IMG/VR virus record: IMGVR_UViG_2671180903_000008
Location: 1-23,488 of that record
Source of the DNA: a virus
Taxonomy: Duplodnaviria; Heunggongvirae; Uroviricota; Caudoviricetes
Strand: one strand, 5' to 3'
Length of the DNA: 23,488 nucleotides
Below the pieces are notes generated by a model. That model had not been told where the DNA came from, made no database searches, and saw only the letters and a program-made list of their open reading frames with translations. The first letter of the stretch is position 1, and every line of letters starts with the position of its first letter. A program made the position numbers and the translations under genes. This document shows positions 19,111 to 23,488 of this stretch, piece by piece.

Positions 19111-19340
19111 GTTAAGCATCCACAGGCTGGTATCTGCAACCGATTATAACGGATGCTTAACGTAATGCGTGAAGTATGGACATATTTTATCAATTAGTGT
19201 TTTTTGCCGTTTCATAATGTTTCAGATTGTTCATTATGTTTTTGATTATAAACAGATTTGTGATTTTCCTTGTTCCAGCTTGTTTCACGTTGTAGCCCTT
19301 TGTGCAACGATCGGTGTAGTTAATGGTGTAGTTAATTGTG

Positions 19341-20588
19341 ATGACCGGAATCAAAATTATGAGCAGAGCACTTAACAAACTGAGCGATACACAGCTGAGG
19401 AAAATCAACGGCACACCCGCCCAAAAAACAGCCTTTCTTAATGACGGTGGAAACCTGAGCGTCAGGCATTCAACCAGTGGCCTTTTAACCTGGTATTTCA
19501 CTTACAGGGCCGGAACGGGAAGGGGGGCACCACCGGAACGCATTAAGCTGGGAAATTATCCTGATCTGAGCCTGAAATCAGCCAGGGAAAAAGCCGCCCA
19601 GTGTCGCGCATGGCTGGCAGAGGGGAAAAATCCACGTCATGAGCTTAATTACACCGTACAGGAAGCGTTAAAGCCGGTAACGGTTGGCGATGCGCTCACC
19701 TACTGGCTTGAGTCGTACGCAAAGGAAAACCGCGTGGATTATGCCGCCCTGAAAAAGCGCCTTAATAATCACGTAATACAGCACATTGGTGCTATGCCGC
19801 TGGATAAATGCGAGCTACGGCACTGGCTGGCCTGTTTTGACCAGGTGGCAAAGCGAACGCCTGTTACTGCCGGATTCTTGCTACAGACGTGCAAACAGGC
19901 GCTTAAGTTCTGCCGGAGGCGGCGCTATGCAATCAGCAACGTTCTTGATGATATGAGTGTGGCGGACGTTGGGAAAAAACCGGATATAAGCGAGCGTGTC
20001 TTAAGCACCAAAGAACTGGGCGAATTATTGCAGGCACTGGACAAAAAAATATTCTCCCCCTACTACATCGCGTTAATCCGCCTCCTGATTGTGTTCGGAT
20101 GCCGGACGGTAGAACTGAGGTTATCGGAGATCAGCGAGTGGGATTTTACCGAAATGCTCTGGACCGTGCCGAAAGAACACAGCAAAACGAAGGTGGCAAT
20201 ATTCCGGCCCATACCGGAAGCAATACTGCCGTTCGTCACGCAGCTGGTGGAGCAGAACAGGCACACGGGTTTATTGCTGGGGGAAGTGAAACAGGAAACA
20301 AGCGTGTCGCAGTACGGCAGATTAGCGCACAGGAGGCTAAATCACCCTCACTGGTCACTACATGACATCCGGCGCACCTTTACAACGATGCTGAACGATT
20401 TAGGCGTGGATCCTCACGTCGTGGAGCAGCTTACAGGCCACCAGATGCCAGGAATGCAGCGAGTTTATAATCATTCCCGTTATCTGGATGCTAAACGCAA
20501 TGCGCTGGATATGTGGACGGAGCGGTTAGGGATACTGGCGGGAACACATGAAAACGTAACCACGCTACCAGTAGCCAGAAGAAAATAA
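19341..20588 (+). CDS. int: Tyrosine recombinase / integrase, P4-type (N-terminal arm-binding domain)
   Basis: N-terminus LSDTQLRKI...LGNYPDLSLKSAREKA matches the P4-type integrase arm-binding domain; C-terminal HDIRRTF and HxxxxxY-type catalytic region. Start is ambiguous between GTG 19338, ATG 19341 and ATG 19359. Confidence 0.85.
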   Translation: MTGIKIMSRALNKLSDTQLRKINGTPAQKTAFLNDGGNLSVRHSTSGLLTWYFTYRAGTGRGAPPERIKLGNYPDLSLKSAREKAAQCRAWLAEGKNPRHELNYTVQEALKPVTVGDALTYWLESYAKENRVDYAALKKRLNNHVIQHIGAMPLDKCELRHWLACFDQVAKRTPVTAGFLLQTCKQALKFCRRRRYAISNVLDDMSVADVGKKPDISERVLSTKELGELLQALDKKIFSPYYIALIRLLIVFGCRTVELRLSEISEWDFTEMLWTVPKEHSKTKVAIFRPIPEAILPFVTQLVEQNRHTGLLLGEVKQETSVSQYGRLAHRRLNHPHWSLHDIRRTFTTMLNDLGVDPHVVEQLTGHQMPGMQRVYNHSRYLDAKRNALDMWTERLGILAGTHENVTTLPVARRK

Positions 20589-20630
20589 TTTTTTTCGTGT
20601 TTTTTCAGTATGCGCATACTGTATATGCGA

Positions 20631-20690
20631 ACAGATACAACGTGCAACAATGAGCAACAATGTGGAACAACTACGAACAAGAGGCGAAAA
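20631..20690. repeat. Array of five to six 10-bp-phased repeats ending in AACAA
   Basis: acagatacaa cgtgcaacaa tgagcaacaa tgtggaacaa ctacgaacaa gaggcgaaaa: the ACAA/AACAA motif recurs every 10 bp. Confidence 0.6.
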
Positions 20691-20952
20691 AGCGTACGGA
20701 TTTATAAGTAGCTGATTTTTAATGCGTTACTGGTTTTTTATACACTAGCGAATCACTCTTTAAAGAGCGAGAAAAAAGGCATGAAACAATATTTTATGCC
20801 TTTGTATTAACATGAATTTAAAAGATTTTATTCTTACTGTTTCATTTTCTGTAAATCATACATCCTCAGTATTTGCCATTTATCACTCTAGCGGGAACAA
20901 TACGACACAATAAGACACCTGATGACTCTTTAAGAAACGAAAGGGGGCAATA

Positions 20953-21141
20953 GTGTTAAGCACTGATCGGTTTATACGTGAAAAAGAATGCGAAAAACTA
21001 ACCGGCCTTAGCCGTACGTGTCGCTACCGCCTGGAAAAGGCCGGACAATTCCCATCACGTCGTAAACTTGGCGGTCGTTCCGTTGGCTGGTCTTTATCCG
21101 AGGTTCTGGCCTGGAAGGATAGCTGCAAGGCAGTTCATTAA
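20953..21141 (+). CDS. AlpA-family transcriptional regulator (phage/island HTH protein)
   Basis: 62-aa translation matches the AlpA pattern (TG.SR...Y......FP...KLG.RSVGW...EV..W); GTG start with AAGGGGG 5 nt upstream. Confidence 0.7.
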   Translation: MLSTDRFIREKECEKLTGLSRTCRYRLEKAGQFPSRRKLGGRSVGWSLSEVLAWKDSCKAVH

Positions 21142-21515
21142 TCACGCTGGCGGCACGCAGCCGCCACACATCAATCATCTGAACACAGAGCTATAACCAT
21201 GAAGATTGAATATACGCCAGAACGTAGGCGGGGATTCGTTCGCCCTGGTGAAACTGAAAAACAACAAAATTGGGGTTTTTCAGGCATAACAAAAAGCGCC
21301 CAGTTACCTGAGCGCCTTTGTGAACGATTAACCTGCTGCACAAAAAATAAATATGAGCATTGGAATTATATCAACTGTGTGAAGAAGCGCCACAATTGCC
21401 GGATTACAGGCAAAAAAAATGCGACCTATGATGGTCGCAAAAATATGATATACATGTTGATTACACTATGTATCGACAACGATGCCACATTTTTGGCTGG
21501 TTGGCAAATCTGTCA

Positions 21516-21701
21516 TCAGGGCGGACAACAACGCCACGATCTCATCTTTCTTGGGCAATTTTTAAGAAAATCCTCAAGGGCAAATCTTTTTGGCCTTGCT
21601 TCCTGTTCATGGTCAGGCATTTCATCCATTTCTCTTAATTTTTTTTCTACCTGTCTTTCAAGTATGGATAATGCGATTTCCCGTAATTCTTCGTTGTTCA
21701 T
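21516..21701 (-). CDS. Hypothetical small charged protein, 61 aa, downstream partner of the RHH gene
   Basis: Strong AGGAG ribosome-binding site 6 nt upstream of the ATG; helical, Glu/Lys/Arg-rich N-terminus; 57 bp after the RHH stop on the same strand. Confidence 0.4.
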   Translation of the reverse strand: MNNEELREIALSILERQVEKKLREMDEMPDHEQEARPKRFALEDFLKNCPRKMRSWRCCPP

Positions 21702-22063: not shown

Positions 22064-22161
22064 GTTTGAGTTTTGTCACTCAAATTAAGCAACGCCCCGC
22101 AGTGCTCGCAACACATGCAGGGCGTCTAACCACCAACGATAGCGAAAGTATCGAGGTAGCT

Positions 22162-22365
22162 ATGAGAAATCATACCACACACCCGCAAGGGCGGGACTCG
22201 CACGACCTGAATAAATACATCTGGCGTTTTATCGCCCTGAGCACGGCACAACCGCGCGTGATTACCATTGAGGCCACCAGCGAACAGGAAGCACGCCAGC
22301 AATCCCCGGCTGGCTGCGTGATGGTATTCGCTGCCCGTATTCGTCAGGAGGTGCGCCATGATTAA
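22162..22365 (+). CDS. Hypothetical small protein, 67 aa (first gene of small-gene operon)
   Basis: ATG at 22162 with GAGG 5 nt upstream; same frame as the tail of the spurious 388-aa ORF; stop overlaps next start (ATGATTAA). Confidence 0.5.
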   Translation: MRNHTTHPQGRDSHDLNKYIWRFIALSTAQPRVITIEATSEQEARQQSPAGCVMVFAARIRQEVRHD

Positions 22366-22570
22366 TCTGTCACTTACTGACCTTAACCGCATTCAGTTTC
22401 GTGAGAAATTCACAGGGCAGCTACTGGTCAATGTGGATAAAGGTCGCGTGGTGTGTAATTACCACTTACCAGATGAAGCAATTGTCGCCACAAGGGAATC
22501 ATTACAGGAAATCACAAAACGTGCCGGAATGATTAACACGAATATTCAGGGGATGCTTTATGCACAATAA
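22358..22570 (+). CDS. Hypothetical small protein, 70 aa
   Basis: Start overlaps upstream stop; stop overlaps next start. Confidence 0.5.
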   Translation: MINLSLTDLNRIQFREKFTGQLLVNVDKGRVVCNYHLPDEAIVATRESLQEITKRAGMINTNIQGMLYAQ

Positions 22571-22799
22571 AACCACACCGGACGCAGCCGCCGAAGCCAT
22601 CAAAACGCTGATGCACGCGCTGATTGATATTTCTGTTATCGCGGACAGGGCACATAAGCACGCCACCAGCGAAACAGAATATGCCGGTGCTTTCGTTCCT
22701 CACTCACTGGCTGTCATGCAATTTAGTGCTGATACGGCGCTGAATGAGGCCAAAGCTATCCTGATTGCTGATTGTGAAAATGGGGGGGGTTATGCGTGA
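22560..22799 (+). CDS. Hypothetical small protein, 79 aa
   Basis: Translationally coupled to both neighbours. Confidence 0.5.
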   Translation: MHNKTTPDAAAEAIKTLMHALIDISVIADRAHKHATSETEYAGAFVPHSLAVMQFSADTALNEAKAILIADCENGGGYA

Positions 22800-23025
22800 T
22801 GATCGTTTTAATTCCCTGAAACAGGAATTTTCCGGCGTTCCTGATGATGCGGCTGATGCGCTTTCGTCAATGCCAGAACTTATTAGAGCGGCTTTTTTCT
22901 TACTTTCCACGAGAGAATATAAATCAACGGGGCTTGATGTACTGAATATCGCCGCCGATTATGCGGAATATGTGGCAGAGGCGCGTTATAGAAGAAAATT
23001 TCCTGAGGATGTAAGCCATGCGTGA
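22793..23025 (+). CDS. Hypothetical small protein, ~77 aa
   Basis: ATG at ~22793 overlaps the upstream stop (ATGCGTGA); the ORF-track entry 22765-23025 begins at an earlier in-frame Met. Confidence 0.45.
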
Positions 23026-23251
23026 TATTTACCACCAAACAATAGACCGCGCATTTCTTGCACTTTCTCACAGTGAAAACATGCTGGAAATATTGCGCAT
23101 ATGGCTTGAAACACTTGGCGACAATGAACGCGACAAACAAAAATCAAGAATTGCCACGGCATTAATAACGCTTCTTGAGCCTGTAATAATGGAACTGCAA
23201 GAAATAGATCTATTGCACGACAGATATAAAGAACAGCACACCGGAGAATAA
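23018..23251 (+). CDS. Hypothetical small protein, 77 aa
   Basis: Start overlaps upstream stop (ATGCGTGA); stop overlaps next start (ATGA). Confidence 0.5.
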   Translation: MRDIYHQTIDRAFLALSHSENMLEILRIWLETLGDNERDKQKSRIATALITLLEPVIMELQEIDLLHDRYKEQHTGE

Positions 23252-23488
23252 AAATAATGAAACTTAAATATTCTGGCTTAACTGCCAGTGGCAACACTCA
23301 CCCTAAATTTACGCGCGGTGATATTTACCGCGACCAGTACGGCGGCACGGTAATGATTAAGGGCGTGGAAGAACGGCGCGTAACCTACCGCCGTGAAGGT
23401 TACGAATATGATTGCGTGATGCCTGTTTATCAGTTCCGGCGTGATTTTTCTCTGGTACAGACCGCGCCGCATAACGTGCCCACCAGCA
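23248..23488 (+). CDS. Hypothetical protein, 5' portion; open to the window end
   Basis: ATG at 23248 overlapping the upstream stop; my translation (MKLKYSGLTASGNTHPKFTRGDIYRDQYGG...) has no stop through 23488; absent from the ORF track presumably because it lacks a stop. Confidence 0.45.
   Translation, partial: MKIMKLKYSGLTASGNTHPKFTRGDIYRDQYGGTVMIKGVEERRVTYRREGYEYDCVMPVYQFRRDFSLVQTAPHNVPTS

Follow-up and report, generated by a model that had tools for sequence, protein, structure and literature searches.

We analyzed a stretch of 23,488 nucleotides, the IMG/VR virus record IMGVR_UViG_2671180903_000008 (hereafter the window), whose right end carries an integrative element next to roxA. The segment from 19178 to 23488 is very probably the left 4.3 kb of a classical Gram-negative phage-inducible chromosomal island (PICI) of about 11.65 kb, belonging to the lineage of EcCICFT073 and EcCIRM12579. 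The visible part comprises the integration zone, a variable regulatory zone and the start of the early (replication) operon. An earlier note, made by reading the sequence, had proposed a PICI or P4-like satellite at this place, and both what it observed and how it interpreted this hold up in essence. The literature already describes the element, its site, its attachment core and its life cycle, and the element is a common one. The present analysis contributes the exact boundaries, places the element in the classical and not the capsid-forming class, and detects no defense cargo.

Integration site and left boundary

The integration zone contains the following features.

19178-19187, plus strand: attL core GGACATATTT, 10 bp, the left edge of the island and the sole exact match in the window
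19313-19336, plus strand: two tandem 12-bp repeats GGTGTAGTTAAT, upstream of int
19359-20588, plus strand: int, tyrosine integrase of 409 amino acids (aa); Pfam Arm-DNA-bind_3 5.5e-18 and Phage_integrase 1.2e-16, phrog_1 5.9e-73
20953-21141, plus strand: alpA, AlpA-family regulator of 62 aa with a GTG start; Pfam Phage_AlpA 5.4e-17, phrog_2790

In an alignment with the unoccupied K-12 locus, homology ends at window position 19187; the equivalent K-12 base is the second of the phoQ stop codon. The last two bases of the core GGACATATTT belong to that stop codon in the empty site. The attL junction in the window reads ...GTATGGACATATTT followed by TATCAA..., the K-12 attB junction reads ...GTATGGGCATATTTATTCATC..., and the attR junction in complete relatives reads ...AAAGGACATATTT followed by ATTCATC...; all three contain the core, which adjoins phoQ at attR in Sakai, FORC_042, CFT073 and O55:H7. 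The insertion therefore lies within the 75-bp spacer between roxA (ycfD) and phoQ, with 67 bp kept on the roxA side and the phoQ stop codon restored at attR. The earlier note had the element begin at 19120, in the roxA promoter region, and suggested a protein-coding or intergenic, non-tRNA site beside roxA. The site beside roxA was confirmed, with the insertion point at the phoQ stop codon, but the start is the core at 19178, about 67 bp upstream of the roxA start codon (19110). The absence of a tRNA target was also borne out: ARAGORN found no tRNA or tmRNA anywhere in the window, and a tRNA was dropped as the insertion target.

The ycfD-phoQ site with core GGACATATTT has been published for EcCICFT073 and EcCIRM12579 (Fillol-Salom et al. 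2018, Table S1). The attL junction (window 19120-19360) was present at ≥80% coverage in 600 out of 5426 complete E. coli genomes (~11%), and in this respect the finding as first stated re-identifies a common published element. PICIs are expected to use specific attachment sites that prophages do not use (PMC6092414), and every occupied copy that we examined at roxA-phoQ is a PICI or a capsid-forming PICI (cf-PICI). In the phage collection, no phage integrase was >50% identical to the window integrase, which fits the same rule. The tandem GGTGTAGTTAAT pair recurs about 98 bp inside attR in four complete islands; it was also detected as a 58-bp similarity between attL and attR. Because the P4 attP has annotated arm repeats, we regard the GGTGTAGTTAAT repeats as probable arm-type binding sites of the integrase.

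The integrase and AlpA follow one another in the same orientation, as the earlier note had reported. The int gene looks intact and also gives a sub-threshold match to Pfam Phage_int_M. Its product is identical over 409 of 409 residues to Sakai ECs1574 and to the ESDR8 integrase, and matches at 407 of 409 residues in O55:H7 and at 398 of 409 (97%) in EcCICFT073; the exact protein is recorded in more than 12,000 blocks of the assembly collection. The protein has an N-terminal Arm-DNA-bind_3 (DUF4102) domain and a C-terminal Phage_integrase domain, the architecture of P4-type (arm-binding) integrases. The label "P4-type" therefore holds for the domain architecture but not for closeness to P4, since the identity to P4 Int is 23%. 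AlpA is identical to its counterparts in Sakai Sp7 and O55:H7 (62 of 62 residues) and shares 59 of 62 residues (95%) with that of EcCICFT073 and 45% with P4 Vis.

The island is almost certainly a classical PICI

Islands at the roxA-phoQ site share one left end and carry one of two alternative late modules. The block from int to alpA (to 21339) is common to all variants at 95-99.5% identity (DNA identity to Sakai Sp7 98.9%, to EcCICFT073 only ~90%). From 21340 to about 23240 the variants are mosaic; this zone corresponds to the "dynamic zone" in the general plan of Gram-negative PICIs by Mageeney et al. (PMC10111431). At the site, the cf-PICIs of Sakai (Sp7), FORC_042 and ESDR8, which share the integrase, carry a complete capsid and packaging module, and the classical PICIs of CFT073, O55:H7 and the O157 strain 3-5-1 carry a short module resembling lambda E, D and Nu1. 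The window by itself cannot discriminate between the two modules. As the earlier note stated, only the first ~4.3 kb of the element are visible. The window ends inside the following gene, which precedes the replication gene.

23257-23488, plus strand: 5' part of a DUF4222 gene, cut by the window end; phrog_285 (the full gene in contig L025 matches Pfam DUF4222 at 1.6e-24)

The late half was read from contig L025 (GCA_012252535.1), found through an exact-protein match to a spurious long open reading frame (ORF; see below). L025 is identical to window 11199-23488 at 12289 of 12290 bases, including the same prophage remnant and the same espK deletion allele, and in this near-identical copy the far end that the earlier note proposed to look for is present as attR followed by phoQ. 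The L025 island measures 11,649 bp from core to core. Downstream of the visible part, it encodes in order DUF4222, an AAA_25/RepA-type helicase, SSB, PerC, Phage_cap_E, HDPD (D-like) and a Nu1-type TerS. Genes for a portal, TerL, connectors, tails or lysis are absent from this island. It is 99.1% identical to the published EcCIRM12579 over 7.7 kb, and the window itself is 99.7% identical to EcCIRM12579 from 22324 onward.

These genes can be compared with what is expected of each class. The PICI gene order of integrase, AlpA and replication module (Fillol-Salom et al. 2018) is seen with int and alpA in the window and the replication genes in L025. The L025 island also has the size of PICIs (~11-15 kb) and, like them, lacks tail and lysis genes; its only late genes are the E-, D- and Nu1-like ones. 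The set expected of a cf-PICI (its own portal, head-tail connectors or adaptor and TerL, plus capsid, protease and TerS) is not present. The earlier note would have abandoned its reading had a complete prophage with head and tail genes appeared downstream. What L025 carries there is capsid-related genes and TerS, with no tail, portal, TerL or lysis genes. Because a copy that differs at one base in 12,290 has the E/D/Nu1-like module and no portal, TerL, tail or lysis genes, the island is almost certainly a classical PICI rather than a cf-PICI, a P4-like satellite or a prophage.

Some observations weigh against this assignment. The window ends at 23488, and the late half is known from the near-identical L025 only. 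Among complete genomes, ESDR8 matches the visible part best (95% coverage) and has a cf-PICI, and the identical integrase also occurs in the Sakai cf-PICI Sp7. In addition, the helicase gene of L025 (12355-13755) has lost one base of a GGGGG run (near position 13215), and the protein is cut short at 296 of 466 aa. Unless the loss is an assembly error, this copy may be unable to replicate on its own.

The helicase deletion raises the alternative that the island is a decaying copy that has lost self-replication, but which might still excise and be packaged inefficiently. In EcCICFT073, deletion of pri-rep lowers transfer about 100-fold without abolishing it (PMC6092414). Against decay, the frameshift falls beyond the window end, within a homopolymer of a contig from a draft assembly, and may be a sequencing error, while int, alpA and attL are intact, as is attR in L025. 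We consider decay unlikely, though worth keeping in mind.

An improbable alternative is a cf-PICI of the EcCIEDL933/Sakai Sp7 type, an island that builds small capsids itself and needs the helper for tails only. This reading draws on the integrase, 100% identical to ECs1574 of the 15.46-kb island Sp7 at the same site; all 10 contigs among the matches listed for the exact integrase are of the cf type, and ESDR8 and FORC_042, which match the visible region best among complete genomes, have cf-PICIs there. Also in its favor, PICIs and cf-PICIs are known to have identical left halves. It does not fit L025, which holds Phage_cap_E, HDPD and Nu1-type TerS within 11.65 kb without portal or TerL, nor the near-identity to the classical EcCIRM12579 from 22324 onward.

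A P4-like satellite dependent on a P2-type helper is very improbable. The order of an Arm-DNA-bind_3 integrase and an AlpA/Vis homologue recalls P4, and one E. coli attC site is known in common for PICIs and P4 elements (PMC6092414). Yet BLASTP against the P4 proteins matches just Int and Vis, the former at the low identity given above, and ycfD-phoQ is listed as a PICI site (Fillol-Salom et al. 2018). P4 satellites are recognized by sid, psu, delta and an alpha primase, and by a CI/C4 immunity RNA with seqA/isrK-type targets. No sid, psu, delta or alpha-primase homologue was found in L025 or the other complete copies. We also considered a P4/P1-type immunity RNA 5' of the icd-like gene and rejected it: Rfam (E ≤ 1, 19000-23488) detected no C4/CI or isrK RNA, whereas the P4 control gave C4 at 74.9 bits and isrK at 60.8 bits. 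Of the two names in the earlier note, PICI is upheld by the site, the core and the Int and AlpA identities, and the P4-like alternative falls away. The end of a conventional or cryptic prophage can be dismissed with equal confidence: the equivalent Sakai element is annotated as "prophage Sp7; untypable" and relatives have capsid-related genes downstream, but no complete copy (11-15 kb) has tail, lysis or phage repressor/lytic modules, and the phage collection has no sequenced phage with a similar integrase (>50% identity).

The earlier note had further pointed to such satellites as hotspots for anti-phage cargo, and this expectation was not supported. PADLOC, applied to the small genes in the visible part and to those genes of L025 that have no assignment, found no defense proteins. 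The gaps between attL and int (171 bp) and between int and alpA (364 bp) are too short for cargo.

Life cycle

The functions of this type of island are known from EcCICFT073 (PMC6092414). There, excision depends on Int, induction depends on alpA, and transfer depends on both. AlpA stimulates its own promoter and genes further downstream, though not int, and alpA expression needs a helper phage. Helpers include lambda, phi80 and a resident CFT073 prophage, and packaging is of the cos type. Because Int and AlpA are 95-100% identical, the same cycle is the best explanation for the window island. The island would stay silent until a lambdoid helper phage is induced. The helper would then turn on alpA, and AlpA would activate its own expression and the downstream island genes. 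Int would drive excision, the island replicon would amplify the DNA, and the product would be packaged by the cos mechanism into helper-made particles, leading to high-frequency transfer. PICIs of this lineage are of wider interest for their PerC-type regulators, linked to the control of virulence genes of the locus of enterocyte effacement (LEE), for interference with lambdoid phages and for high-frequency transfer.

A variable regulatory zone with a candidate repressor

The region between int and the early operon contains the following features.

20589-20952, plus strand: low-GC spacer between int and alpA with the putative alpA promoter region (alignment of 8 island variants, pattern search)
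21296-21315, both strands: GC-rich hairpin, with a minus-strand U-run and a weak one on the plus strand (folding, -24.1 kcal/mol on the minus strand)
21420-21439, minus strand: intrinsic terminator of the leftward operon, TGCGACC..GGTCGCA followed by eight T (terminator scan and folding)
21516-21701, minus strand: second leftward gene, 61 aa (ORF list)
21723-21749, minus strand: hairpin between the two leftward genes, conserved across variants (folding, -19.4 kcal/mol; conserved stretch MRRSSSHHGADS)
21759-21956, minus strand: YlcI/YnfO (DUF3950) protein gene, 65 aa, with a predicted ribbon-helix-helix (RHH) fold
21984-22063, plus strand: divergent control region with the palindrome TGTGCGCACA at 22031 and 22054 and a copy with 1 mismatch at 21984

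The rightward -35 element TTGACA (22025-22030) directly abuts the first exact TGTGCGCACA, and the second copy follows 23 bp further. All other variants have TTGAC(A/G) and then a different paired palindrome at the equivalent position, as follows.

CFT073: GTGGGCCACAC
Sakai: GGTGGTCACCT
O55:H7: TGGTAATTACC
L007 and FORC_042: GTAATGACACATTAC-type
Klebsiella and Serratia islands: GTGTTTAAACAC, three copies

Among the island variants compared, each palindrome type accompanies a distinct RHH protein. In the Klebsiella and Serratia islands the RHH gene sits in the same place, divergent, between alpA and the primase operon. Because the RHH gene and the palindromes facing it vary together between variants, we infer that the RHH protein is a candidate island repressor, which would act on the early promoter through the paired TGTGCGCACA and would form with them a module that exists in several specificities.

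The second leftward gene (21516-21701) matched nothing in Pfam, PHROG, NCBIfam or PADLOC. Every variant has a counterpart of it, and the types of this gene assort independently of those of the RHH gene. For instance, FORC_042 pairs a second gene of the window type with an RHH gene and operator of the L007 type. Similarity between the window and FORC_042 stops at 21756, and the hairpin at 21723-21749 coincides with the FORC_042 recombination breakpoint.

We read the hairpin at 21296-21315 as a predicted bidirectional terminator, closing the block that is conserved in all variants (to 21339). In Pseudomonas, AlpA is an antiterminator that is loaded at promoters (PMC7969949, PMC9371919), and it is plausible that the island AlpA lets transcription read through this terminator. 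In such a scheme the RHH protein (21759-21956) would repress the rightward early promoter at the paired TGTGCGCACA palindromes. AlpA-dependent transcription would then pass 21296-21315 and override this repression, the AlpA-modified RNA polymerase running antisense over the repressor operon into the early genes.

Fillol-Salom et al. (2018) considered it unclear whether Gram-negative PICIs possess a global repressor, and in the literature library that we searched, no paper linked AlpA, PICIs and a ribbon-helix-helix protein. We tentatively put forward, as a possibility that we do not favor over its negation, that the RHH gene and its paired palindromes are the "missing" master repressor or immunity module of enterobacterial PICIs and cf-PICIs, with many interchangeable specificities, and that AlpA overrides it by terminator bypass from the convergent alpA transcript. 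If so, Gram-negative PICIs would not be the purely unidirectional, activator-only elements first described, and islands with different RHH and operator types could be "hetero-immune" to each other. The divergent RHH gene with its variant-specific operators may be the only new part of the finding, and the zone around it is the only part that might matter beyond annotation.

Several further observations concern this zone. A sub-threshold Rfam match overlies the hairpin at 21296-21315. In Klebsiella islands with a homologous RHH gene (L018 and L020, 8565-12204), the integrase directly adjoins a lambda-like portal, gpW and terminase (GpA). This arrangement is the "helper-embedded PICI" configuration of Mageeney et al. 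(2023).

In the spacer between int and alpA, promoter function is suggested by the PalpA fusions made in EcCICFT073. GNAACAA repeats occur there at 20644, 20654 and 20664, within a 10-bp unit GCAACAATGA repeated in helical phasing (20644-20684) 5' of alpA. The copy number of this unit differs between islands, with three additional copies in L009 (11228-11637), and the array may bind a protein. A LexA-box-like sequence TACTGTATATGCGAACAG at 20617-20634 fits the core CTGT-N8-ACAG. We rejected it as a link to the SOS response: the box is perfect only in the window lineage, has CTGG in most variants and is deleted in CFT073. Expression of alpA has been reported to be independent of the SOS response (PMC6092414), and the box is probably incidental.

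Early operon and a spurious long ORF

The rightward early operon begins as follows.

22093-22138, plus strand: conserved leader hairpin and TCTAACCACCAACG motif, 5' of the icd-like gene (alignment of 8 variants, including the Klebsiella and Serratia islands)
22162-22365, plus strand: icd-like gene, 67 aa, first of the operon; NCBIfam phage_ICD_like (NF033153) 1.8e-18, phrog_6196 7.9e-56
22358-22570, plus strand: small early gene, phrog_340
22560-22799, plus strand: small early gene, phrog_2512
22792-23025, plus strand: small early gene, phrog_24341
23018-23251, plus strand: small early gene, phrog_2196

Every variant has the hairpin and the TCTAACCACCAACG motif ahead of the start codon of its icd-like gene. 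The consensus fold of the hairpin (22093-22124) has 11 pairs, 3 of them with compensatory changes, and no Rfam family matched at 22093-22138; hairpin and motif may together form a cis-regulatory RNA element. The four small early genes overlap, belong to PHROG families of unknown function, have annotated counterparts in O55:H7 and gave no PADLOC match.

A 388-aa ORF on the plus strand (21199-22365) was rejected as a real protein. It shows no third-position substitution bias between variants, and homologues cover its C-terminal ~92 aa only, where the real gene is 22162-22365. It also overlaps the two leftward genes, which share one reading frame (one of them with family support), and it crosses terminators. 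Nevertheless, alpA is followed in every variant by a stop-free frame of 247-388 codons, which several genomes list as a hypothetical protein (ECs1576 in Sakai). Gene callers report this antisense long ORF, which masks the two leftward genes.

Chromosomal setting

To the left of the island, the window contains the following features.

1 to ~13266: lambdoid prophage remnant
13426-14118, minus strand: espK allele
16672-17940: pepT
17989-19110/19119, minus strand: roxA (ycfD)

The prophage lies at the potB/potC boundary (window 1-13266 and 14481-15344) and ends after the tape-measure protein and a 113-aa minor tail protein. Because it lacks the distal tail genes L, K, I, J, lom and the fibers, as well as most of the effector cargo of its relatives (nleL, espN), it is a remnant and not a functional helper. 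In the window, potB and potA sit between the espK allele and pepT, and potC does not adjoin potB. The espK allele, encoding a type III effector, is a low-GC ORF of 230 aa with an in-frame internal deletion of 669 bp that removes the central repeat region; a full-length espK (453 aa) is present in the near-identical contig L026. In ESDR8 (L001, 34400-44185), the right flank of the cf-PICI is ydgV/mdtJI and not phoQ, which points to a rearrangement of the chromosome that broke it at the island or close by.

Comparison with known systems

The closest known system is EcCIRM12579 from E. coli O55:H7 RM12579 (NC_017656.1, 1438155-1449376; Fillol-Salom et al. 2018). It has the same site and core as the window island, an integrase with two substitutions and an identical AlpA. 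Its similarity to L025 (99.1%, 7.7 kb) runs from the icd-like gene through rep, SSB, PerC and the capsid E-like and D-like genes to TerS. It differs in the stretch of about 1 kb that separates alpA from the icd-like gene (window 21340-22323), which is exchanged for another variant of the RHH and second leftward genes and the operator TGGTAATTACC instead of TGTGCGCACA. A further difference is the frameshifted helicase gene of the near-identical L025.

EcCICFT073 of E. coli CFT073, the prototype Gram-negative PICI, likewise shares the site and core, with Int at 97% and AlpA at 95%. The gene order is the same: int, alpA, the leftward pair, icd, small ORFs, DUF4222, rep, SSB, PerC, capsid E-like and D-like. 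However, it has a replication protein of the primase family where the window island (as seen in L025) has a RepA/AAA_25 helicase, another RHH type with the operator GTGGGCCACAC, and an unassigned 144-aa ORF in the position of the Nu1-type TerS. The prototype cf-PICI EcCIEDL933/Sakai Sp7 has identical Int and AlpA proteins at the same attachment site. Sp7 is larger (15.46 kb) and carries an HK97-type capsid, protease, portal, head-tail connectors, HNH, TerS, TerL and a DUF927 primase; these late genes and the DUF927 primase are all absent from the window island as seen in L025.

P4 resembles the window island in its arm-binding-domain integrase, its small regulator of the Vis/AlpA type, the tandem arm-type repeats near the attachment core, the rightward early operon leading to a replication protein and an Icd or "cI-ORF"-like region. 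P4 integrates at a tRNA-Leu site. It has immunity based on the CI RNA (Rfam C4/isrK), plus sid, psu, delta and epsilon, none of which the island possesses; in the corresponding zone, the island has a gene for an RHH protein with its operators.

The staphylococcal pathogenicity islands (SaPIs) and other Gram-positive PICIs, with their Stl/Rpr repressors, have no sequence relationship to the window island, and the integrase of the latter is not on the repressor's side of the divergent promoter. Gram-negative PICIs further differ from SaPIs in that induction is controlled by the activator AlpA (PMC6092414). If the RHH protein is a repressor, however, its gene would face the excision and replication operon as a divergent repressor gene, which matches the Stl/Str layout.

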